64,000 nt of DNA. It comes from Squalus acanthias. Taxonomy: Eukaryota. Location: assembly GCA_030390025.1 (NCBI GenBank), contig CM059432.1, forward strand, positions 93,994,001 to 94,058,000. Reading direction: 5' to 3'. Shown one piece after another: positions 1-64,000 of the stretch (its first letter is position 1; every line of letters starts with the position of its first letter). The position numbers and the translations under genes were made by a program. Below the pieces are notes generated by a model. That model did not search any database, was not told the DNA's origin, and saw only the letters and a list, made by a program, of their open reading frames with translations.

Positions 1-750
1 GTATGGTGAAAGAGAAGGGTTTTGAGGAGGCTTTGGAAAGCAGGGAGGGAAGTCACAGAGCACAGAGGGACCTGGGGCAGGGTGTTTCAAAGAACAAGAG
101 CATAGTTGTTGATCAGTGGCTACCACTGGTCAAGCAGATGAAGAAGAAGCCTTTGTTAGGGAAGCAGAGAGTGTGCACAGGAATCACTAAGAGAGGGTAG
201 GGCGAGGTCTTGGAGGGAATTAAAAGTGAGGAGAAGAATTTTGAAACCAACTTGTTGAGGCCCACAGAGCTAGTGGAGCGTGGAGAGGATGAACGCGATG
301 GGATTACAGGACTTTGTGCAGGTGAGGATGTGGACAGAGGCATTTTGAAGAAGTTATAATTTGTGGAGGGTAGAAGCAGAGAGGTCGCTAGAAGAATGTT
401 AGAGAAGTCGAGCTTTGAGCTGATAAAGGCATGGACTAAACTTTTGAGAGAGAAATTGGGGTACAACATGTGTGGGGGACAAAACTGAGCTCAGGGTCAT
501 GAAGTGCACCAAAGCTCCACACCTCCTAACTCAGCCAGATATGCAGCCAGGAAGATGGATGGAGTCAAGGCCAGAGCAACGTAGGTACTGGAGTGAGCCA
601 AAGGGAGACGGTTTCAGTTTTGATGACGTTAAGCTGAAGGAGGTTTTGCCTCATCCAGTTTTTGATGTCAAATAGGCAGTTGGAGTGTGCAGTGACGGCC
701 TTTATATCGATGGAACAGATGTCGTCAGCATGCATGTGGAAGCTGACCAA
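1..750 (-). mobile_element. Decayed L2-clade LINE, RT C-terminal region
   Basis: Minus ORFs 113..469 (LVHAFISSKLDFSNILL) and 565..750 (FHMHADD...CLFDIKNWMRQNLLQLNVIKTE) match typical L2 ORF2 motifs; frameshifted. Confidence 0.85.
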
Positions 751-1233
751 TTAAAGAAAATAAACAAACGAACATTCAGTACAGTTTTAAAATTGGGTTT
801 AAAAATGTTTAGCCTGTAATTACATGCAGACTATGCATCTGCAGCATGACACAGTTTCTAAAATGAGGAGCACCTTCACAGGAATCATTACCCAATGATT
901 ACACTTATTTAGTAACCAGTTGCTATATTATTTCCACAACTGTGAAGCATCAGTCACATATCACACTGTTCTCACGTAATTATTTAAATTCCAATTGTTA
1001 TACTTATTGTAGAGTCATTAACTGTCATCTTTATTGCTAAGGTCTATGATTTTCTTGCTTTGTGCAATCAAGAAACCTTTCATTTGTGTGCCATTCTTTG
1101 GAATGAGATCACGCAGTTTTAGGGCTCAAAATAATTTTTGGATCTCAATTAACAATGGTATTGTGTAGAACTACAAACACATTAGCAACTGATGTACTTG
1201 AAGCAGCAGCAATTCTCCAGGTTTGCACTAAAT

Positions 1234-1918
1234 GAGTGATTGTTAACCATGCCCACCCTACGGAAACCAGACGGGCGGGCAGTTAAAATCACCCGTGTGA
1301 TTTGCCCTTCGAGTTTTGGCTCTTTTCCCACAGGCTCCGATTTTAACCTGCTTTTCGGAGCAGGCTGGGAGAACACCCACTGGAAACTGGTGGGATCCTT
1401 TATATATGCAGCTCGGGCTCCGATTTCATTATCGAGACTTAACTACTAATTTAACTAAAGGCCTGCACAGGGAAGCCATGTCTTTCCTGCCAGGCCAACC
1501 TAGCATGGGAAGCAGCGTCGAGCCCAGATAAAGCCCAAACAGGTAAGTCGTTTTACTTTTTTTGTCTTTCCTTGTGGGACCAGGGAGAAGCAGGAGTGCT
1601 CCTCCAGGCTCCACAAGAAAAGTTTAGGCCTCCCCTGTCCCTGGCTTCCTCCCTACCCCAATCGCTAGGCCCTCCAAAACTCCCTTCCTGTAACTTACCG
1701 GAGTGCCGGGACTGTTCCTTTGGTCCTTGGTGGCAGCCTCCTTATGCCCAACATTTTGCTTCTGCCTGCCGGCAAGCTGCTGCTTGCCACCAGTTTCAGA
1801 CAGGAGACTGACTGAGGCTGTACAGATGAGGAGTGCAAGTTAAAATCACCGAGGCCTTACACTACTGAAGTCGGGATGGTTTGCTGCCCACTCCCGCTCC
1901 AAGTTAAAAATCGAGGCT
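1234..1918 (+). mobile_element. Non-autonomous TIR DNA element (MITE-like), GATTTTAAC/GTTAAAATC family
   Basis: Degenerate ends gagtgattgttaac / gttaaaaatcgaggc; internal AGGTAAGT, T-tract and hairpin shared with copies at 24.3 kb and 39.9 kb. Confidence 0.6.
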
Positions 1919-2757
1919 TAAGTAGTTTCAAGTAGGTTTTAGGCTGCAATTCAAACCAAGAAAATTGCAAATGTAGAATCTTGGTTCTGCAAATCTAAGT
2001 TACGTTAGGCCGAACAGATCAATAAGATCTTTTGTCCCCTTTTCCATTACAGTGCTGAACAAAGTGCTATATTGTAAATAAGGCAATGCGACTTCGAGGA
2101 GCAGAAACCAACCTCAAGAAGTCATGATTTCCCGATTCTCTGTTAGGAGCAGCGCTGAGCCTACCTATACAGGGCAAGTTATGTGCTTTTTATATTGCTG
2201 GGCTGTACATATCTTCCCCAGACAGAAATAAAATTTGTGACTCAACATCAATGCATGCACGAGATTGCACATGATGCCACTGTTGCTATGGAGATCGCCC
2301 CACAATGCAAATGTGACAGTTCCACACCAGAACCAAAGTACATTACAGAAACTCTTCTCTTAAAGTAGTCCTATAACATAGAGATCATAAAAGACGCAGC
2401 CAGACGTTAAGCAATAGCAAACACTGTGCACAGTCAGCACTTGGATAGGAAGTGAAATACAGCTCTGGTTTCACATCATGAAACAAAGCTGATCACTGTT
2501 ATATCAACGTAGGTGTTCACCAAGTTAGTGAACATGAGAAAACAGAAAAGGCTATCCAGCCCACAATGACTTCTCCTTGCAATAGACCATGCATTATTTG
2601 AACGATCATGGATTTTCCAAAAATACTAAGAAAAAAACAATAGGTGCATTTAGGGAAGTTTCTTTCTGATCCCATAAGTAAAATCATAGAATGGCTGCCT
2701 TCCGTGCTGTAACCATTCAGCCCGAACCGACTCTCAGCTAAAAGTTGATTTTGCCGC

Positions 2758-2825
2758 TAGCAGAGAAGGGTTTTGATCCATTGACCTCTGGGTTATGGGC
2801 CCAGGTTCTGCTGCGCCACTCTGCT
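2758..2825 (-). pseudogene. Initiator tRNA-Met (CAT) pseudogene
   Basis: Reverse complement agcagagtggcgcagcagaacctgggcccataacccagaggtcaatggatcaaaacccttctctgcta aligns to vertebrate tRNA-iMet with a 4-nt D-arm deletion and CpG-type substitutions. Confidence 0.9.
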
Positions 2826-2869
2826 CAATAACATGGATATCAATCCACATGATCTCTGTAAGTGGCTCC

Positions 2870-3160
2870 AGTCCTTCAATCCCCGCATCCCATAATCCTC
2901 CAGTCATCGGACTCTGCCTTCCTGGGCATCCCCCCTCCTTTCACCCCACCATTGGCAGCCTTGAGCTGCCAAGGCTTCACACTCTGGAATGCTCTCCCTA
3001 AACTCCTCCTCCTTTAAGCTATTTCTTAAAACCCAACACTTTGTCTCGGCTTTTGCTCACCCCTCCCAATATCTCCTTTGGCTCGGCATCCATCTTTTCC
3101 TTACGTCTCTGAAGTGCCTTGGGACATTTATTTATGTTGATGGCGCTGTATAAATTGTTG
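2870..3160 (+). mobile_element. L2 LINE 3' fragment
   Basis: accattggcagc...ctctggaatgctctccctaaa...gtgccttgggac...ggcgctgtataaat matches the L2 3' end at 13157-13450 (minus). Confidence 0.7.
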
Positions 3161-3224
3161 TAGTAGCTATCCATATGTATCCAAGAAACTCAATTATAAT
3201 TTTATTCCCACCAAACGTTTTTCT

Positions 3225-3632
3225 CATTGGCTTCCTCCTCTCCCCTTTCCTCTTCTGAAAGCATCAGCATTTGCTGCAGTACTGTTCCATGAACACTGAT
3301 CACTTTGCCATACCTCATCCAAGTGACCATTATTCATGGGTCAACCTTTTTAGTGAATGCCAGGGGCATCACAGCAGACCCTGATCTTTTATTCCCCTGA
3401 CGTTCACATGTATGTTTCCAGCTGGGAACCATACATCTGGACATCAAGTTAAAACAGAATCAGGAACAAGAACCCTGGTGAGTTTTCCCCTCCTTAACAC
3501 GGGGACACAGAGGTCAATCATACCCCCATCCTGGCTGAGATCAGCTACTCAGCACAGACTGGGGGGGATAGAACCGGAGGTCTGAATGGGTCAGCAATTC
3601 AATGGATAAACTTGCTGAGCCATCAGGAGAGC
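3225..3632 (-). mobile_element. Old tRNA-headed SINE (AmnSINE2-like by recollection)
   Basis: Minus strand: tggctcag head, gtctgtgctgagtagctgatctcagcc, cagggttcttgttcctgat, catgaataatggtcacttgg; same blocks recur at 7.2, 15.9, 19.7-21.4, 21.8 and 42.6 kb. Confidence 0.6.
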
Positions 3633-7718: not shown

Positions 7719-8508
7719 AAATTATTTAAATGGGGAGAAATTACAAAATGCTGAGGTAGAGGGATCTGGGGGTCCTTGTACATGAATCACAAAAAGTTAG
7801 CATGCAGGTACAGCAAGTAATTAGGAAGGCAAATGGAATGTTGGCCTTTATTGCAAAGGGAATGGAGTATGAAAGTAGGGAAGCCCTGTTACAACTGTAC
7901 AGGGCGTTGGTGAGACCACACCTGGAGTACTGCGTACAGTTTTGGTCTCCCTATTTAAGGAAGGATATACTTGCATTGGAGGCAGTTCAGAGAAGGTTCA
8001 TGAGGTTGATTCTGGAGATGAAGGGGTTGTCTTGAACAGGTTGGGCCTATACTCATTGAAGTTTAGAAGAATGAGAGGGGATCTTATTGAAACATAAGAT
8101 TCTGAAGGGGCTTGACAGGGTAGATGCAGAGAGGATGTTTCCCCTCGTGGGGGAATCTAGAACTAGGGGGCATAATTTCAGAATAAGGGGGCACCCTTTT
8201 AAATCGGCAATGAGGAGGAATTTCTTCTCTGAGGGTTGTGAATCTTTGGAATTCTCTTCTCCAGAGAGCTGTGGAGGCTGGGTCATTGAATATATTTAAG
8301 GTGGAGATGGACAGATTTTTGAAAGGTAAGGGAGTCAAGGGTTATGGGGACATCTTTGTTGTCCAAAATAATGCAAAACAGCCGAGAAATATTCAGAACA
8401 CATTATGGAGTTGAGGCCAAGATCAGATCAGCCATGATCTTATTGAATGGCGGAGCAGGCGCGAGGGGCCAAATGACCTACTCCTGCTCCTACGTCTATG
8501 TTCTTATG
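7719..8508 (+). mobile_element. CR1 LINE, 5'-truncated (RT C-terminus and 3' UTR)
   Basis: ORF 7802..8035 LYRALVRPHLEYCVQFWSPY; 3' UTR gatcagccatgatcttattgaatggcggagcagg and ttcttatg tail. Confidence 0.95.
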
Positions 8509-9707: not shown

Positions 9708-10157
9708 AAAGAAATTGCATTTATACAGGACCTTCCATGACCTCAGGATGTCCCAAATTGCTTCACAGCTAATTAAATACTTTTGACGTGTAGTCACTGT
9801 TGTAATGTAGGGAAATGTGGTCGCCAATTTGTGCACAGCAGAGTCCCGCAAACAACAATTGAAGAAATGACCAGATAAACTGTTTTAATAATGTCAGTTG
9901 AGGAATAAATAGGAGTAGAACACCCCTGCTCTTTTTCAAATAGTGCCATGTTATCTTTTACATCCATCTGAAAGGGCAGACGGGTCTCGGTTTAATATCT
10001 CATTTGAAAGATGGCACATCCAACAGTGGAGCACTCCCTCAGTGCTGCACTGAAGTTTACTACCTAGATTGTGGGCTCAAGTCTCTGGAGTGGGGCTTCA
10101 ATTCAAGACCTTTTCACTCAAAAGGTGAGAGTGCTACCATTGTGTCAAGGCCGACAC
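9708..10157 (-). mobile_element. SacSINE1-like DeuSINE, near full length
   Basis: Reverse complement of the SINE at 52919-53336: tRNA-like head, central domain and L2-type tail. Confidence 0.85.
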
Positions 10158-16122: not shown

Positions 16123-16847
16123 GTAAAAACATTTTTTTTTTTTTTTAATTAAAAAGAGCTGGAGAAATAACATGTCAAGCATCAGTTTGAAGGTTATAGG
16201 GATAATAAACAGGTGATCAAATACTCCATGGAACACAGCTGTTTTTGTGCTACTGGGATCTTTGAAAATGCAATCAAAAGGAACTGACCAATGTCAAGTA
16301 AATGAACTTAATGGTTAGACAGACATTGTGACCTTTTCAGAATTATATTTGGGGTTCAGGAAGAAATATTGCTAAACATTTCCTCAGGAGTTCAAATAAG
16401 TGGTAGCTACTATAAGGCAAATTGTACATGTTCTATGGAAGCAATAGGTTTTAAGTATGTCAATGCTTTATGTTTTATCCAGTTGTGCCACATAGCACAA
16501 ACTACATCTTTCCTTAAGATATTTTATACACATTGCATGTATTGTAACTATAACTACGGCAACGGAGTATTTTGGATGCTATAATTAAATGCATGCTATA
16601 GTAATATTGCATAAGAATGGAATACAAGAAGCAGAGAGCCAAGATTCTGTAAGCTTATGGGCAAAAATGGCTTACAACTAAGGTTGGGATATATTACCTT
16701 GATGGCAACTGTCTGTTTAACTGTTGGTTAAATATTTCTTAAAATCACTGATGAATTTCTCATGCTAAAATTTTATTTGAATTTCAGATACAAGGAGGCA
16801 TTCTTTCTTAATCTATCCTCCCACAACACCATAATTTCACTCATTAC

Positions 16848-17100
16848 AGACTAGTCAAGCAACAGCCCAGCATAGTCATACTCAGAATCATACCTAGCAG
16901 CCAATGTCTCAAACTCCTCCATCATCATCCCTGGGTATGTCCTGTCCCACCGGTGCAATGTATACAGTTGGGGGTAGTGGCCCTGGGAGTCCTCAACATT
17001 GATGGCAGACCCCTTTACATCTCACAATTTCAGGTCAAACATTGACAAGAAAATCTCTTATTACCACCTAACACCCTCCCACAGCTAATGAATCAATACA
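16848..17100 (+). mobile_element. Endonuclease-region fragment of the Zenon-like LINE
   Basis: gactagtcaagcaacagcc...ccctgggtatgtcctgtcccacc...gtggccctgggagtcctcaacattga matches 31520-31770. Confidence 0.75.
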
Positions 17101-24440: not shown

Positions 24441-26688
24441 CGTAAGACGTAGGAGCAGGAGTAGGTCATTTAGCCCCTTGAGCCTGCTCCGCCATTCAAT
24501 AAGATCATGGCTGATCTGATCTTGGCCTCAACTCCATTTCCCTGCACACTCCCCATAACCCTTGACTCCCTTACCTTTCAAAAATCTGTCTATCTCCACC
24601 TTAAATATATTCAATGACCCAGCCTCCACAGCTCTCTGGGGAAGAGAATTCCAAAGATTCAGGACCCTCAGAGAAGGAATTCCTCCTCATTTCCGATTTA
24701 AAAGGGTGCCCCCTTATTCTGAAATTATGCCCCCTAGTTCTAGATTTCCCCCACGAGGGGAAACATCCTCTCTGCATATACCTGTCAAGCCCCTTCAGAA
24801 TCTTATATGTTTCAATAAGATCCCCTCTCATTCTTCTAAACTCCAATGAGTATAGGCCCAAACTGCTCAACCTTTCTTCATAAGACAACCCCTTCATCTC
24901 CGGAATCAACCTCGTGAACCTTCTCTGAACTGCCTCCAATGAAAGTATATCCTTCCTTAAATAAGGAGACCAAAACTGTACGCAGTACTCCAGGTGTGGT
25001 CTCACCAACACCCTGTACAGTTGTAACAGGACTTCCATACTTTTATACTCCATTCCCTTTGCAATAAAGGCCAACATTCCATTTGCCTTCCTAATTACTT
25101 GCTATACCTGCATGCTAACTTTTTGTGATTCATGCACAAAGACCCCCAGATCCCTCTGTACCTCAGCATTTTGTAATCTCTCCCCATTTAAATAAATAAT
25201 TTGCTTTTTTATTTTTCCTACCAAAGTGGATAACCTCACATTTTCCCACATTAAACTCCATCTGCCAGATTTTTGCCCACTCACTAAGCCTATCTATATG
25301 CCTTTGGAGATTCTTTGCGTCCTCCACACAATTTGCTTTCCCACCTATCTTTGTATCATCAGCAAATTTGGCTACATTACACTCAGTCCCTTCATCCAAG
25401 TCATTAATATAGATTGTAAATAGTTGAGGCCCCCGCACTGATCCCTATGGCACCCCACTAGTTACAGTTTGCCAACCTGAAAATGACCCATTTATCCCAA
25501 CTCTCTGTTTTCTGTTAGTTAGCCAATCATCTATCCATGCTAATATATTACCCCCAACCCCGTGAGCTCTTATCTTGTGTAGTAACCTTTTATGTGGCAC
25601 CTTATCGAATGCCTTCTGGAAAACCAAATACATGACATGTACTGGTTCCCCTTTATCCACCCTGCTCGTTACATCCTCAAAAGAATTCCTGCAAATTTGT
25701 CAAACATGATTTCCCTTTCATAAAACCATGCTGACTCTGCTTGACTATATTATGATTTTCTAAATGTCCTGCTACCACTTCCTTAATGACGGACTCCAGC
25801 ATTTTCCCAATGACAGATGTTAAGGCTAACTAGTCGATAGTTGCCTGCTTTCTGTCTCCCTCCTTTCTTAAATAGGGGCGTTACATTTGAGGTTTTCCAG
25901 TCCGCTGGGACCTCTCCAGAATCCAGGGAATTTTGGTAGATTACAACCAATGCATCCACTATCTCTCCAGCCACCTCTTTTAAGACTCTAGGATGCAGGC
26001 CATCTGTTCCAGGGGACTTGTCCACCTTTAGTCCCATTAGTTTGCCTGGTACTTTCTCTCTCGTGATAGTAATTGTTTTAAGTTCCCCCCCACCCCAATA
26101 GCCCCTTGATTATCCATTATCGGGATGCTTTTAGTGTCTTCTACTGTGAAGACCGATACAAAATATTTGTTCAAAGTCTCCGCCATTTCCCTGTTTCCCA
26201 TTATTAATTCCCCAGACTCTTCCTCTAGGGGACCAATGTTTATTTTAGCTACTCTCTTCCTTTTTATATAGCTGTAGAAGCTCTTACTGTCTGTTTTTAT
26301 ATTTCTTGCTAGCTTACTCTCATAAGCTATCTTCTCTCTCTCTCATTTTTTTAGTTGTCCTTTGCTGGTTTTTAAAAATTTCCCAATCCTCTGGCCTTTC
26401 ACTATTCTTCCCAACATTGTATGCTTTTGTTTTCAATTTGATACCATCCTTTACTTCCTTAGTTAGCCATGGATGGTTCATCCTTCTCTTGGAGTCCTTC
26501 TTTCTCACTGGAATATATCTTTGCTGAGAGTTATGAAATATCTCCTTAAATGTTTGCCACTGCTTTTCTAGTCTTACCCTGTAATATATTTTCCCAGTCC
26601 ACTTTAACCAAGTCTGCCTTCATACCTGGTAATTACCTTTGCTAAAGTTCAGGATACTTGTTTGAGACCTAGCTTTCTCACCCTCAAA
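24441..26688 (-). mobile_element. CR1 LINE, 5'-truncated, relatively young
   Basis: ORFs 26320..26508, 25783..26037, 25445..25660, 25163..25438 (KFADDTK) and 24601..25077; 3' part nearly identical to 7719-8508. Confidence 0.95.
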
Positions 26689-31096: not shown

Positions 31097-33639
31097 GTGT
31101 ACTGTAGCATAGTGGTTATATTACTTGATTAGCAATCCAAAGGCCTGGACTAATAATCCAGAGACACGAGTTCAAATCCCAGCATGGCAGTTTGTCAATT
31201 TGAATAAAAAGCTAGTATCTGTAATGGTGACCAGAAAGCTATCGGATTGTCGTAAAAACCCAACTAGTTCACTAATGTCCTATAGGGAAGGAAACTTGCC
31301 ATTCCAACCTGGTCTGGCCTATACGTGACTCCAGACACACAGCAATGCCCTGTGAAATGGCCCAGCAAGCCATGCACCAAACCCCTACAAAAAAGCACAA
31401 GAATAAAACCAGAGGGACCACCCGGCATCGACCTAGACACCAGATTCGGACACGACAAAGGCACATCCAGCTGAGTCAAGCCTGCAAAGTCTTCTTCACT
31501 AACATGTGGGGACTTGTGCCACAGACTATTCATACTCATGCAGAATATCAGCCGAAGACCCAGACTCCTTCATCACCATACCTGGGTATCCTTTCCCATC
31601 TAGCAGGACAAACCCACTAGGAGGTGGCGGCACAGTGGGAAGGAGTGGCCCTGGGAGTCCTCAACATTGACTCCAGACCCCATGATGTCTCATGTCATCA
31701 GGCCATGGGCAAGGAAACCTCCTGCTGATTACCACCTACCGCCCTCTCTCAGCTGATGAATCAGTACTCCATGTTAAACACCACTTGGAAGAAGCACTGT
31801 AGGTGGCAAGGGCACAGAACATACTCTGGGTGGGGGACTTCAATCTCCATCACCAAGAGTGGCTCGGTAGCACCACTACTGACCGAGCTGGCAGAGTCCT
31901 GAAGGACATAGCTGCCAGAATGGGCTTGCGGCAGGTGGTGAGAGAACCAACACGAGGGAAAAACCTCTTACTTACCAATAATGTACCTGTCATAGATGCA
32001 TCTGTCCATGACAGTTTGGGTAGAAGTAACCACCCTACAGTCTTTGGAGGTCAAGTCCCATCTTCACACACATCCATCATGTTGTGTGGCACTACCACCA
32101 TGCTAAATGGGATAGATTCAGAACAGATCTAGCAGCTCAAAACTGGGCATCCATGAGGTACTGTGGGCCATCAGCAGCAGCAGAATTGTATTCCCCATGG
32201 CCGTCATATCCCTCCCCCTACCATTACCAACAAGCCGGGCGACTGACCCTGGTTCAATGAGGAGTGCAGAAGAGCTTGCCAGGAGCAGCATCAGGCGTAC
32301 CTAAAGATGAGGTACCAACCTGGTGAAGCTACAAAGTGCAGAATTGCCCAGGTATGTCCTGTCCACAAAAAAGGACAAATCCAATCCAGCCAATTGCCGG
32401 CCCAACAACCTACTCTCAATCATCAGCAAAGCGATGGAAGGGGTCATCAACAGTGCTATCAAGCAGCACTTACTCACCAATAACCTGCTCACCGATGCTC
32501 AGATTGGGTTCCACCAGTACCACTCTGCTCCGGACCTCACTACAGCCTTGGTCCAAACATGGACAAAAGAGCTGAATTCCAGAGATGCGGCGAAAGTGGC
32601 TGCCCTTGACATCAAGGCAGCATTTGACAGAGTGCAACACCAAGGAGCCCTAGTAAAATTGAAGTCAATGGGAACAGAGGGGAAAACTCTCCACTGGCTG
32701 GAGTCACACCGAGCACAAAGGAAGATGGTTGTGGTTGTTGGAGGCCAATCAACTCAGCACCAGGACATCGCTGCAGGAGTTCCTCAAGACAGTGTTCTAG
32801 GCTCAACCATCTTCAAGTGCTTCATCAATGACCTTCCCTCCATCGTAAGGTCAGAAGTGGGAATTTTTGTGACGATTGCATTGTTCAGTTCCATTCGCAA
32901 CTCCTCAGATAATGAGGCAGTGGCAAGTAACGTTTGCGCCACACAAGTGCAAGGCAATGACCATCTCCAACAAGAGAGTCTAACCACCTCCCCTTGACAG
33001 TCAATGGCATTACCATCGCCAAATTTCCCACCGTCACCATTGACCAGAAACTTAACTGGACCAACCACATAAATACAGTGACTATAAGAGCAGGTCAGAG
33101 GCTTGGTATTCTCACCTCCTGAATCCCCAAAGCCTTTCCACCACATACAAGGCACAAGTCAGGTGTGTGATGGAATACTCTCCACTTGCCTGGATGAGTG
33201 CAGCTCCAACAACACACCACCTGGGACAAAGCAGCCCACTTGATCGGCAACCCATCCACCACCTTGAACACTAACTCCCTCCACCACTGGCGAAATGTGG
33301 CTGCAGTGTGTACCATCTACAAGATGCATTGCAGCAAATTGCCAAGGCTTTGACAGCACCGCCCAAACCCACGACCTCTAGCACCTATTGTCCTAATTTC
33401 TCCTTATGTGGCTCATTGTCAGATTTTGTTTCATAACACTTTGGGACATCCTACTACATTAAAGGCGCTATATAAATGCAAGTTGTCGTTGGAACTCCAT
33501 TACAGCACTGTGGGAGCACCTTCACCACACGGACTGCAGTGGCTCACCATCACCTTCTTGAGGGCAATTGGGGATAGGCAATAAATGCTGGCCTTGCCAG
33601 CGCCGCCCACAACCCATGAATGACTAAAAAAAAAAAAAA
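31097..33639 (+). mobile_element. CR1-group (Zenon-like) single-ORF LINE with tRNA-derived 5' head
   Basis: A box tagcatagtgg 31105-31115, B box gagttcaaatcc 31168-31179; endonuclease motifs TNMWGL and WVGDFNLHHQEWLGS; RT ALDIKAAFDRV, GVPQDSVLG; poly-A end. Confidence 0.9.
33389..33491 (+). mobile_element. L2 3' tail fragment inside the Zenon-like LINE
   Basis: cctaatttctccttatgtggct...aaaggcgctatataaatgcaagttg matches the reverse complement of 13160-13270. Confidence 0.8.
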
Positions 33640-42579: not shown

Positions 42580-42975
42580 TGCTTCTCTTTTTCTGACCCA
42601 ATTTCATCCCCCCGCCCTTCTCACACTGAAGACGTCAACTCATCACAGGGGTATAGTTCTGTGACTGTCACTAACCCTCCAGTTGCTTATGCAACTGGTC
42701 TTTATTCATGCATGAACCTAGATAGCAAACATTGATAGCATTACAGGCATAGGAAGCATCACAGCAAAGCTTGATCCTGTTCTCACCTGATAGTCACACA
42801 TATCTACATTCAGAAGGAGAGACCGTATAGCAATCAGGGGCAGAAATGCTGTCTGATTTTGCTTTCTCTTAAGCTGAATGGACTCAGGCCATTTGGAGCA
42901 CCCCAAACATGAACCTGGCTAAATTTAATTTTGTACAGGCCAGAATCAAACCTGGGACCTTCTTGCCTGTAGGGT
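42580..42975 (-). mobile_element. Old tRNA-SINE (AmnSINE2-like)
   Basis: ttgatcctgttctcacctga, tagcaatcagggg and aaacctgggaccttcttg blocks. Confidence 0.5.
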
Positions 42976-43545
42976 GGGGGAATAGGTGATGCAAGTACCC
43001 TTGAAGGTCAGGTTGTTAGGCTGTTTCTTGCCAGAGATAGTCGTTACCTGGCACTTATGAGGCACAATTGTCATGTGCCACTTGTCAGCCCAAGCCTGGA
43101 TGCTGTCCAGTTTACTGATGAAATCATAAGCAAACAGCTCCACTTCTGATCGAGTGATGGAGCGAAGGTCATTGATGAAGCATCTGAAGTGGTTTAGGCC
43201 AAGGGCACTGCCTTAAGGAACTCCTACAGCAATGTCCTGTGGCATGTTTGGCCTTGGATAAACAGCTTCCTGTGTGGCAATCATGACTCCTTTTCTTTTT
43301 GATCCCGATTGAACTCAGTTTTACTAGGGCTCCTTAGTGTCATACATGGTCAAATGATGTCTTGATGCCAATGGCAGCTACTCTCACCTCTCCTCTGACA
43401 TTCAGCTCATGTTCATATCGAGACCAGAGCTGTGAGGAGGTCTGGAGTCAAGTCGTTCCGGTGGAACCTGAAGTGAGCATGTTATTAGCAAGAAGGTGCC
43501 ACTTGATGGCACATTTGGTGAATCCTTCTACCTCTTTGCTGATGA
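42976..43545 (-). mobile_element. Older RT fragment of the Zenon-like LINE
   Basis: ORF 42946..43143 IQAWADKWHMTIVPHKCQV; similar to 44560-45170. Confidence 0.75.
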
Positions 43546-45965
43546 TATACACAAATATTACATTATATTTTTTGCTTTTCATATCTCGAGTACTTTAGTA
43601 GTCTGAAATCCCTTGAACTGGATAATCCATTGTGAAATTAGGATTCTAAGCTTCAATGACTTGTGCTTTGGACAAAAACATATTGCACTTTCAATAAGGC
43701 AGTCTAATTGAACATTGTAATAACACAATCTAGTTATGTTAAAACATTAATGGGTAATTATTAGAAGCCTGCTGAAAATGAAATGCCTAAAATTATGTTT
43801 TTTTACGCCACTGATTTTAATACATTACATCAGGGCCAACTTCTTTTTGTCTAACCAGCACCAAGCTTTTTTTCTATTATTCGTTCCTGGGATATGGGCG
43901 TCGCTGGCAAGGACAGCATTTATTGCCCATCCCTAATTACCCTCGAGAAGGTGGTGGTGAGCCGTCTTGTTAAACCGCTGCAGTCCTTGGTGGTGAAGGT
44001 ACTCCCACAGTGCTGTTAGGGAGGGAGTTCCAAGATTTTGACCCAGCGACGATGAAGGAACAGCGATATATTTCCAAGTCTGGATGGTGTGTAACTTGGA
44101 GGTGATGGTGTTCCCATGCGCCTGCTGCCCTTGTCCGTCTAGATGGTTGAAGTCGAGGGTTTGGGAGGTGCTGCCGAAGAAGCCTTGGTGAGTTGCTGCA
44201 GTGCATCTTGTAGATGATTCACTCCCTGCCCCGTGGCTGCATTATGTTTAAGATGGTGGATGGGGTGCCAATCAAGTGGGCTGCTTTGTCCTGGATGGTG
44301 TCGAGCTTCCTGAGTGTTGTTGGAGCTGCACTCATCCAGGCAAGTGGAGAGTATTCCATCACACTCCTTACTTGTGCCCTGTAGATGATAGAAAGGCTTT
44401 GGGGAGTCAGGAGGCGAGACACTCGCCGCAGAATACCCAGCCTCTGACCTACTCTTATAACAGTATTTGTGTGGCTGGTCCAGTTAAGTTTCTGGTCAAT
44501 GGTGACCCTCAGGATGTTGGAGGGGGATTCGGCAATGGTAATACTGCTAAATGTCAAGGGGCGATGGTTAGACTCTCGCTTGTTGGGGATAGTCATTGCC
44601 TGGCAATTTTGTGGCGCGAATGTTACTTGCCACTTATCAGCCCAAGCCTGAATGTCATCCAGGTCTTGCTGCATTTGGGCATGAACTGCTTCATTATCTG
44701 AGGAGTTGCGAATGGAACTGAACACTGTGCAACCATCAGCGAACATCCCCACTTCTGACCGTATGACGGAGGGGAGATCATTGGTGAAGCAGCTGAAGAT
44801 GGTTGGGCCGAGGACACTCCTGAGGAACTCCTGCAGCGATGTCCTGGGGCTGAGATGATTGACCTCCAAAAACTACAACCATCTTCCTTTGTGCTAGGTA
44901 TGACTCCAGCCAGTAGAGAGTTTCCCCCGATTCCCATTGACTTCAATTTTACTAGGGCTCCTTGATGCCACACGTGGCCAAATGCTGCCTTGATGTCAAG
45001 GGCAGTCACTCTCACCTCACCTCTGGAATTCAGCTCTTTCGTCCATGTTTGGACTAAGGCTGTAATGAGGTCTGGAGCCAAGTGGTCCTGGCGGAACCCA
45101 AACTGAGCAGGTTATTGGTGAGTAAGTGCTGCTTGATAACACTGTCGACGACATCGTCCATCACTTTGCTGATGATTGAGAGTAGGCTGATGGGGCGGTA
45201 ATTGGCCGGATTGGATTTGTCCTGCTTTTTGTGGACAGGACAAACTTGGGCAGTTTTCCACATTGTCGGGTAGATGCCAGTGTTGCATTCCACCACAATC
45301 TGTACAGCTACAATTCTGTTGCTGCTGATGGCCTACCGCGCCTCATGGATGCCCAGTTTTGAGCTGCTAGATCTGTTCTAAATCTATCCCATTTAGCACG
45401 GTGGTAGTGCCACACAACACGATGGAGGGTGTCCTCAGTGTGAAGACGGGACTCAGTCTCCACAAGGACTGTGCGGTGGTCACTTTTATCAATGCTGTTA
45501 TGGACAGATGCATCTGCGACAGGTAGATTGGTGAGGACGAGGTCAAGTAGGTTTTTCCCTCATGTTGGTTCTCTCACCACTTGCCACAGGCCCAGACTGG
45601 CAGCTATGTCCTTCAGGACTCGGCCAGCTCAGTCAGTAGTGGTGCTACCGAGCCACTCTTGGTGATGGACATTGAAGTTCCCCACCGAGAGTACATTCTG
45701 TGCCCTCGCTACCCTCAGCGCTTCTTCCAAGTGGTGTTCAACATGGAGGAGTACTGATTCATCAGCTGAGGGAGGGCAGTAGGTGGTAATCAGCAGCAGG
45801 TTTCCTTGCCCATGTTTGACCTGAACCCATGAGACGTCATGGGGTCCAGAGTCAATGTTGATGACTCCCAGGGCCACTTCTTTCCAAGTGTATACCACTG
45901 TGCCTCCACCTCTGGTGGGTCTGTCCTGCCGGTGGCACAGGACGTACCCAGGGATGGTGATGGAG

Positions 45966-46138
45966 CTCTCCCTGCCTCTACACTTGCTTAAAAACCTATT
46001 ACATCTCCAACTTTTTCCAGTTCTGATGAAGGGTCATCAACCTGAAATGCTAACTCTATTTCTCTCTCTACAGATGCTGCCTGACCTGCTCAGTGTTTTT
46101 ATTTCAGATTTCCAGCATCCACAGTATTTTGCTTTTGT
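45966..46138 (+). mobile_element. Solo Penelope pLTR fragment with hammerhead motif (46019-46055) and 12-bp TSD
   Basis: atggtgatggag at 45954-45965 and 46139-46150; insert homologous to 33725-33911. Confidence 0.9.
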
Positions 46139-46177
46139 ATGGTGATGGAGGAATCTGGGACACTGGCTGAAAGGTAT

Positions 46178-47257
46178 AAGAACATAAGAAACAGGAGCAG
46201 GATTAGGCCATTCAACGAGATCATGGCTGATCTTCTACCTCAGCTCCACCTTCCTGCCCGATCCCCATATCCCTTGATCCCTTAATATCCAAAAATCTAT
46301 CGATCACTGTCTTGAATATACTCAACATACTGAACCTCCACAGCCATCTGGGTAGAGAATTCCATAGATTCACCACCCTATGAGTGAAGAAATTTCTCCT
46401 CATCTCAGTCCTAAATGGCCGACCCCTTATGCTGAGACTATGACCCCTGGTTCTAGACTCCCCAGCCAGGGGAAACATCCTCCCTGCATCTACCCTGTCA
46501 AGTCCTGTAAGAAGTTTGTATGTTTCAATGAGATCACCTCTCATTCTTCTAAACTCCAGAGAATATAGGCCTAGTCTACTCAATCTCTCCTTATAGGACA
46601 ATCCCCCCCATCCCAGGAATCAGTCTGGTGAACCTTCGTTGCACTCCCTCTATGGTAAGTATATCCTTCCTTAGGTAAGGAGACGAAAACTGTACACAAT
46701 ACTCCAGGTGTGGTCTCACCAGGGCCCTATGTATTTGCAGTAAGAGATATTTACTCTTATACTCAAATCCTCTTGTAATAAAGGCTAACATACCATTTGT
46801 TTTCTTAATTGCTTGCTGTAACTGCATGTTAAATTTCAGTGATTCGTGTACAAGGACACCCAGGTCCCTCTGAACACCAACACTTCCCAATCTCTCACCA
46901 TTTAAAAAAAATACACTGCTTTTATATTTTTCCTACCAAAATGAATAACTTCACATTATATTCCATTTGCCATGTTCTTGCCCACTCACTTAGCCTGTCT
47001 ATATCCCCTTGAAGCTGCTTTGCATCCTTCTCACAACTTACATTCCCACCTAGCTTTGTATCATCAGCAAACTTGGATATATTACATTGGTCCCCTCATC
47101 CAAATCATCGATATAGATTGTGAATAGCTGAGGCCCAAGCACTGATCCTTGCGGTACCCCACTAGTTCCAGCCTGCCATCCCAAAAATGACCCACTTATT
47201 CCCACTCTTCTGTTTTCTGTCCATCAACCATTGCAATTCTATGAATTCGTCCTCCAA
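46178..47257 (-). mobile_element. CR1 LINE, 5'-truncated
   Basis: ORFs 46591..46890 and 46221..46601; ttcttatgttcttat tail. Confidence 0.95.
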
Positions 47258-48516
47258 TGATTCTGTGAGTACGACGGTCAGGCTGTTGCTTGACTAGTCT
47301 GTGGGACAGCTCTCCCAATTTTGGCACAAGTCCCCAGATGTTAGTGGACTTTGCAGGGTCGACTGGGCTGGGTGTGCTGTTGTCGTGTCCGTAGCCGGTG
47401 CCGCGGTCGATTCCAGGTGGTCCGTCCGGTTTTATTCTGATCATTGCTTTTCGTAGTGGTTGTGTACAACTGAGTGGCTTGCTCAGCCATTTCAGAGGGC
47501 AGTTAAGAGTCAACCACATTGCTGTGGGTCTGGAGTCACATATAGGCCAGACCAGGTAAGGATAGCAGATTTCCTTCCCTAAAGGACATTAGTGAACCAG
47601 ATGGGTTTTTACGACAATCCGATAGTTTCATGGTTACCATTACTGATACTAGCTTTTTATTCCAGATTTATTTAATTAACTGAATTTAAATTCCACAGCT
47701 GAACTAGTCCAGTAACATAACCACTGTGCTACCCTTCCCTAGCTTGGATAGTAGTAATTTTATTCAATAGATTGGGGTTGTCACGGATTGCCCAGTATCA
47801 ATTTAATCAACCAGGAGGAACAATTCCATAGGATGAGTTGCTTTCCAGCTCACTGCTATAAATTGGCTTCATACAGTAGTTTGGTTTAAAAAGGAGCAAG
47901 AATACATGCAACTAAATTGTGAAAGCTAGAAGGCACGTGTAATTGCGTCCTAAACTCATGAGCTGGTTGGGAGTCCAGCACTCAGACACCTTGAGCTGAA
48001 AGGCAGATAGAAATACAACAGCTCAAGTCAAATGTACATGCTTCATTTCTTCGAAAATTAAATTCGGCAAACGTTTTGTAGTGGAGAAATAATCACATTA
48101 CCTATGTCCTTTAAGGCTGCAAGGGCAGAAGGAAATCTAAACACTACAGAGTTAATAATATTAGCAAATAAAACCAAAAGTAAAGCAACTAATAAATTGG
48201 GAGCAGCAGACTGCCTTATATATTCAATTTACATTAAGAATATGACATCTCCTGGGCATGAAAGACATGACTTGATTAGAAATATCCATGTGGGTGAAAT
48301 ACTGAGCAGCATTTGACTGAACAAAAGCAACAACTTCCTTTTTAAGAAATTAATTCTCTAAAATCTATACATTATTAATGCCACAGGACACAGTTTGACC
48401 AATGTTTTATTAAGGGACTGCCATTGTTTATACTCATAGCTACAAATTAATACAAAGCTGAATCACTTCAATTCAACTTTTGCAAAATCATTAGAATTCG
48501 ACTTCCACTGAACATG

Positions 48517-63881: not shown

Positions 63882-64000
63882 GGGTACGGTAGCGTAGTGG
63901 TAATGTCACTGGGCTAGTAATCCAGAGGCCTGGACTAATGATGCAGAGACGTGAGTTCAAATCCCACCACGGCAGCTGGGGAATTTAAATTCAGTTAATG
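63882..64000 (+). mobile_element. tRNA-derived head of the same LINE/SINE family, running off the window
   Basis: gggtacggtagcgtagtgg...gagttcaaatccc matches 31097-31190 and the reverse complement of 47680-47739. Confidence 0.88.

Follow-up and report, generated by a model that had tools for sequence, protein, structure and literature searches.

The window, i.e., the whole stretch of 64,000 nucleotides analysed here from the 3.7-Gb genome of Squalus acanthias, contains members of an abundant LINE family that lacks an ORF1 and begins with its own tRNA-like 5' end bearing A and B boxes, an architecture that is found family-wide. Head and ORF have been co-inherited through two subfamilies, the ORF is under purifying selection in the masters, and the sense strand of the family avoids T-rich, terminator-like words. 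Because the element has an exact tRNA-type start and has specifically lost T-rich words, we take transcription by Pol III as the best explanation, and this 3.3-kb coding LINE is probably transcribed in that way. It is also reasonably likely that the family represents a once very successful coding retrotransposon made by Pol III, with an uncapped 3.3-kb RNA that was purged of T-rich terminators and lacks an AUG start, and with a 5' end that is shared between LINE and SINE.

Members of the tRNA-headed LINE family in the window and the parts of copy 1 (positions are those of the window)
Feature	Position	Strand	Basis or remark
LINE copy 1	31097..33639	+	decayed; consensus position 5 = 31101; A tail at end
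tRNA-like head, 5' end of the element	31097..31190	+	copy 1; anticodon arm duplicated
A box	31105..31115	+	by sequence
B box	31168..31179	+	by sequence
5' body/leader, common to the SINE	31191..31385	+	consensus alignment
Basic leader, APE endonuclease and first part of the linker	31386..32331 (start approximate)	+	frameshifted; Pfam on copy L061, consensus alignment
Endonuclease motif I codons (TNMWGL)	from 31498	+	copy 1
Deletion of ~480 nt	32331-32334	+	copy 1 vs consensus
Reverse transcriptase and C-terminal region	32331..33571	+	decayed; Pfam RVT_1 on L061
Position of the family stop codon	33569-33571	+	TGG in copy 1; consensus alignment
Nested tail fragment of another repeat (SINE tail), outside the family	~33389..33490	+	matches other window repeats, without match in copy 2
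Short 3' UTR, common to the SINE	33572..33639	+	AATAAA 33580-33585; A tail 33626-33639
LINE copy 2	43867..47739	-	decayed; layout as copy 1; nested CR1 and SINE inserts ~45966-47256
Third head, 5' part of a 388-nt SINE (locus L070)	63882..64000	+	continues beyond window end
Older RT fragment of the family	42973..43546	-	68% identity
Endonuclease fragment of the family	16846..17099	+	77% identity

The A box, the B box and the TNMWGL codons of copy 1 lie in the sequence where the original prediction had placed them. It had also held that no room is left for an ORF1 ahead of the endonuclease, and in the consensus the ORF indeed opens already at position 330. The junction between head and endonuclease recurs in copy 2, which is 91-95% identical to the consensus of the older subfamily and in which, as had been described, the segment with the B box (consensus 38-91) is deleted. 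The head at 63882, noted at the time as a third head, belongs to a short SINE composed of consensus 1-328 and 3216-3307 and not to a third LINE. Sense-strand runs of four or more T (T4+) are found in copy 1 at 32864 (T5) and at 33424 (T4, within the nested SINE-tail fragment), and in copy 2 at 44872-44868 within the element, with six more in its nested CR1 and SINE inserts; once nested inserts are set aside, the counts per copy agree with those first given. The window additionally holds young CR1 copies at 24450-26600 and ~7758-8497 (minus/plus), the arms being ~16 kb apart and 96-97% complementary.

Family members were drawn from the source genome in two sets. The head-picked set comprises 60 loci, namely 39 of 40 scored matches, 20 of another 40 and the third head of the window; since the queries spanned the head-ORF junction, the frequency of this joining is not measurable from that set, and three of the loci (L082, L085 and L086) lie on one contig with shared flanks and are not independent. 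The RT-picked set comprises 40 of 89 loci chosen by the RT-to-end protein alone. Derived from 26 copies, the consensus measures 3307 nt and has one frame of 973 codons, from position 330 to 3248, which is open in both subfamily consensuses (built from 22 and 36 copies) as well. On copy L061, Pfam identifies an APE endonuclease followed by a reverse transcriptase (PF14529, E=1e-14; PF03372, E=4e-9; RVT_1, E=5e-39).

The all-against-all depth among head-picked loci rises sharply at the head, with nothing common upstream, and 36 of the 60 start at consensus position 1-2. Ten of the 40 RT-picked copies reach the head (position 1-7), eight of them at position 1, and no alternative 5' end occurs among the 40. 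Full-length copies thus start at the tRNA head and share no sequence upstream of it, as had been expected. The remaining 30 RT-picked copies are 5'-truncated at scattered breakpoints (159-1786); a head match is found in none of their loci, and the 25 upstream bases differ from copy to copy. The 3' end, on the other side, is fixed and carries an A tail, with all 40 copies extending to 3300-3307. The whole open frame is present in none of these 40 copies, the longest having 874 codons. TSDs enclosing head and ORF, which were anticipated at the outset, are absent from the 33 end-to-end copies, where scores of 4-9 compare with 4-10 in mismatched-pair controls. A lack of TSDs is a trait of CR1/L2-group elements. 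Seven of the 30 truncation points fall within a 124-nt part of the leader (consensus 159-282) and none within 8-158, a clustering with a post hoc P of 0.004 for the interval and of 0.29 for the whole leader.

The head matches the Rfam tRNA model weakly (16.2 bits, E=1.7, on L065). ARAGORN reports a tRNA-Thr(AGT) on the consensus only at a relaxed threshold and makes no tRNA call in the window at default settings. A tandem duplication of the anticodon arm, of ~21 nt, lies at consensus ~27-68 of the head. Two one-letter variants of the A box together account for 31 of 49 LINE copies, and one and the same B-box 12-mer is shared by 38 of 61 LINE copies and 12 of 21 SINE copies; the boxes are not visibly better conserved than the rest of the head. 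An Rfam match to sR23 on the minus strand (E=0.005) was taken as chance, its score being far under the gathering score.

Diagnostic sites divide the copies into two subfamilies, an older one whose members are on average 95.0% identical to its consensus and a younger one for which this value is 97.7%. In 45 of 49 copies, the ORF haplotype follows from four sites in the head (table 25/4/0/20, P=4e-10). The subfamilies differ by 34 synonymous codon changes and 27 replacements, compared with 604 and 1283 among the changes restricted to single copies (P=2.4e-4). This linkage, together with the synonymous bias, indicates that selection for the protein acted on masters that bore the head.

The family also has a short form, sampled here as 20 of 40 matches (three of which share flanks), and its 420-nt consensus is 98% identical to the two LINE segments named above. 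Given that the SINE equals the two ends of the LINE, one might propose that the LINE targets this SINE, or adjoins it by chance, so that head and tail would be target sequence; target-specific LINEs of the Tx1 type do exist (PMC4494074). Hardly any credence can be given to this proposal. The 30 truncated copies have no head in front of them, which refutes target-specific insertion into the SINE, and the last ORF codons and the stop fall inside the shared tail. Moreover, the linkage of head and ORF haplotypes, in combination with selection on the ORF, rules out chance adjacency as well as insertion into a SINE target.

The SINEs rather look like deletion derivatives of the tRNA-headed LINE. The last ORF codons are retained in all SINEs observed and the junctions in the source genome vary (~300/3208 and 328/3216), both of which point to repeated deletion from the LINE; further head-to-tail joints are found in contigs from other sequencing runs. 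The statement that the LINE had captured a SINE promoter covers one of two directions: the SINEs look LINE-derived, and the first fusion of a tRNA head onto a LINE may nevertheless have come about through a SINE. The head haplotype is the older one in most SINEs and the younger one in the SINE of the window (63882). Three SINEs (L251, L254 and L256) lie on small contigs in what is a tandem or segmental array, with identical flanks and each behind another SINE tail.

Distinct from the LINE head is a Deu-like tRNA-SINE family with five copies in the window (at 9991, 19880, 38089, 40945 and 53063), which are probably of SacSINE1 type. A Deu-like motif of 21 nt, chosen with the BivaMD alignment in the supplement of PMC4824008 as a guide, occurs five times elsewhere in the window (0.02 expected) and not in the LINE. 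On the absence of this one motif, an identity of the head or of its SINE with SacSINE1/Deu was rejected, and the element is assigned to another family.

In 17 of 70 copies, the A tail is separated from the element by a run of 4-9 T, which would place a terminator exactly at the ends of those copies. As a templated terminator the run is unsupported, with a single T present in 40 of the 70 copies and T length unrelated to A length (rho=-0.16, P=0.18). It is missing from the consensus, and such runs may arise after insertion.

Across 3.3 kb, T4 runs are absent from all three consensuses, the one of 26 copies and those of the two subfamilies, so that the claim of a shared consensus without T4 stands. 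Taken alone, this absence is significant against base shuffles (P=0.03) and not against synonymous-codon shuffles (0 vs 1.6-1.9 expected, P=0.11-0.15). With protein and codon usage fixed, however, five T3 runs are observed where 11.4-11.6 are expected (P=0.001-0.002), and only 1-2 windows have four T in five nucleotides where 9-10 are expected (P=0.004-0.016); the equivalent A, C or G windows show no depletion. A depletion relative to codon-shuffled controls thus holds for T3 and near-T4 windows and fails for T4 by itself. Interrupted T runs of this kind serve as weak termination signals for Pol III.

As outside controls, those 56 of 80 metagenome loci of relatives were used in which a frame spans 600 codons or more. 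The observed/expected ratio of windows with four T in five is 0.11-0.21 in the tRNA-headed LINE, against 0.69-1.37 in these relatives, where the T3 ratio is at least 0.77. For the host CR1 consensus, the two ratios are 0.96 and 1.04. T4 is carried by all 56 relatives, at 1.2 per kb or more, and their T content is at least 0.215, compared with 0.19 in the LINE ORF. Within the genome, family copies have 0.10-0.17 T4 per kb versus 3.4-5.1 in the five largest CR1-type clusters, in a control set that is CR1-type only, with no L2, RTE or headless sister family among its members; two single fragments (320 and 502 nt) are without T4. In the non-coding 5' 329 nt, T makes up 26% and no window has four T in five, versus 11 such windows of A. 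Depletion of TT at codon junctions reaches z=-4.4 in the LINE and -3.1 to -3.8 in 7 of the 56 relatives.

The main rival to transcription by Pol III is that Pol II makes the coding RNA, from an internal promoter in head or body or by read-through from upstream, and that the avoidance of T has another cause, be it a low-T composition or U-rich processing, splicing or decay signals. This would agree with LINEs being transcribed by Pol II and with Pol III elements being short (PMC10886601), with the low T content of the ORF, with the absence of T4 falling short of significance by itself, and with an AATAAA ~45 nt ahead of the A tail. Polyadenylated Pol III SINEs, however, have an AATAAA too (PMC9599045). 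The depletion survives fixed protein and codon usage and is T-specific, it lies far outside the 56 relatives and CR1, and it reaches into a leader that is T-rich and non-coding; in addition, the 5' end lies exactly at the tRNA start. Considering both sides, we regard transcription by Pol II as unlikely, if a serious contender. Contigs from four presumed-RNA runs span the whole element, from its head to its tail, and include head-to-tail joints, contigs being blind to start, strand and polymerase.

The leader is unusual in its start codons. The first 305 nt of both consensuses contain eight ATGs, the last of which (consensus 303; 31357 in copy 1) is in frame with the ORF, the frame being kept in 51 of 60 copies. 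Behind it, in ~75 copies, codon 3 is TAG in 47 (CAG in 12, GAG in 6) and codon 9 is TAA in 49 (TAC in 12), and no further in-frame ATG occurs until codon 287, past the endonuclease. Eight upstream ATGs and a first usable in-frame ATG at codon 287 are a poor fit to cap-dependent scanning. As the in-frame ATG is closed by stops, the LINE protein would need a non-AUG, read-through or re-initiation start, and such routes are discussed for LINE ORFs in general in PMC3894237. At consensus 339, the near-cognate ACG is in the majority (41 copies), and the ACA of 15 and the ATG of 8 copies fit CpG decay of ACG. In P0001 and P0007, the closest relatives of the LINE in the tree, a Met lies ~28-35 residues ahead of motif I. 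The folding energy of the leader is nothing unusual against shuffles (z=-0.49), which leaves an IRES unsupported. The missing AUG start fits with an uncapped RNA and is no proof of one.

With TAG and TAA behind ATG 303, no ordinary start remains, and the head-bearing long copies could accordingly be seen as non-autonomous Pol III passengers, SINE-LINE chimeras that an unseen headless master mobilises in trans. We consider this improbable, given that the 40 RT-picked copies show no other 5' end, that head changes track ORF changes and that the latter are biased to synonymous ones. Deletions that copies share just past the putative start also measure 3 nt (7+3 copies), though they lie in a repeat where slips of 3 nt are natural.

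If the coding LINE is transcribed by Pol III, TFIIIC would bind the A and B boxes of the head, and the polymerase would read the full 3.3 kb, with no T4 or near-T4 word to halt it, and would stop where a T run first occurs, at the tail or behind it. Translation of the uncapped RNA would begin near consensus 330-341, at a non-AUG codon, internally or by re-initiation, and the LINE protein would bind the 3' tail for target-primed reverse transcription without TSDs, often leaving 5'-truncated copies. Deletion of the ORF would repeatedly give a tRNA-SINE with the same two ends. More speculatively, the family may have originated when a bipartite SINE that bore the head recombined back with the LINE via their shared 5' sequence, which would also account for the in-frame ATG being cut off by two stops. 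Walsh et al. 2013 reportedly described SINE pieces in BovB ends, and the promoter of human L1 was in the past said to be Pol III-dependent. Against such a long transcript it has been argued that the weak processivity of Pol III limits elements of this kind to ~0.1-1.3 kb and that their autonomous partners must use Pol II (Kojima 2024, PMC10886601).

At the RT level, the family is 33% identical to the host CR1 and 48% identical to the nearest of the relatives compared. In an RT tree without named references, it groups with P0001 and P0007 (support 0.80), apart from the host CR1; the label CR1-Zenon, which we assume for it, is a guess. ARAGORN found no tRNA on 44 metagenome loci of relatives, at settings that also miss the LINE head, and a B-box pattern lies far upstream in 2 of the 56 relatives, whose contigs may end short of the 5' ends. 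Two of the metagenome relatives, L091 (~390-480, twice) and L094 (~180-210), have a short 5' motif in common, which resembles a hammerhead-type ribozyme core. Of sampled words from one copy of the LINE, 20-74% are present in runs under eight organism labels from seven studies, and the source may be among the best of these. CR1-Zenon elements have been reported in the whale shark (10.1101/443036) and in bivalves (PMC10294476, PMC11481361). In the literature covered, to which Repbase/Dfam and most subscription papers did not belong, a tRNA-headed coding LINE is not described and three motifs of the family matched no paper; an existing repeat-library entry for the family is quite possible.

In the textbook division, Pol II makes coding LINEs and Pol III makes short non-coding SINEs, a split that a LINE with a tRNA promoter, if true, would break. 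It would also mean that a protein is naturally made from a long Pol III RNA without an AUG start, against the limit on Pol III argued in PMC10886601, and it would allow a direct test of the exchange of heads and bodies between SINEs and LINEs.

Several known systems share part of this organisation. The lepidopteran CR1-group LINE Zenon has a single ORF, as here, and an internally deleted derivative, Persaeus (PMC6740152); Persaeus has neither tRNA homology nor a Pol III promoter, whereas here LINE and derivative are both tRNA-headed. The 420-nt SINE consensus is composed of a tRNA head, a LINE 5' part and a LINE 3' part, in the same manner as Bov-tA/Bov-B, CoeSINE4 and SINE2-1_ACar/Vingi-2 (Kojima 2018, PMC5786205), but in those cases the head is described on the non-autonomous element, and here the full coding LINE is headed too. 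SacSINE1 and the Deu-SINEs of cartilaginous fishes, with L2-2_CM as partner, are likewise tRNA-headed, 400-460 nt long and provided with a LINE-shared tail (PMC5499810); the homology reported with their LINE is confined to the tail, and the SINE described here is without the Deu-like motif. T+ SINEs such as B2 and Can also combine a Pol III head with an AATAAA near the end and an A tail (PMC9599045), yet they are described there as short, non-coding and equipped with a T run, while the present LINE is coding and its consensus has no T run. The TRIMp3 elements Cassandra, Helenus and Ajax are, like this LINE, non-SINE retroelements with a Pol III promoter derived from a small RNA, but according to PMC10886601 they are of LTR type, non-coding and at most ~1.3 kb long, unlike a coding LINE of 3.3 kb. 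The long element resembles SINE2 in its head with A and B boxes and departs from it in being neither short nor non-coding (3307 nt, with a selected ORF), whereas the 420-nt derivative is both short and non-coding. What differs from the known cases is that the coding LINE itself bears the tRNA head.
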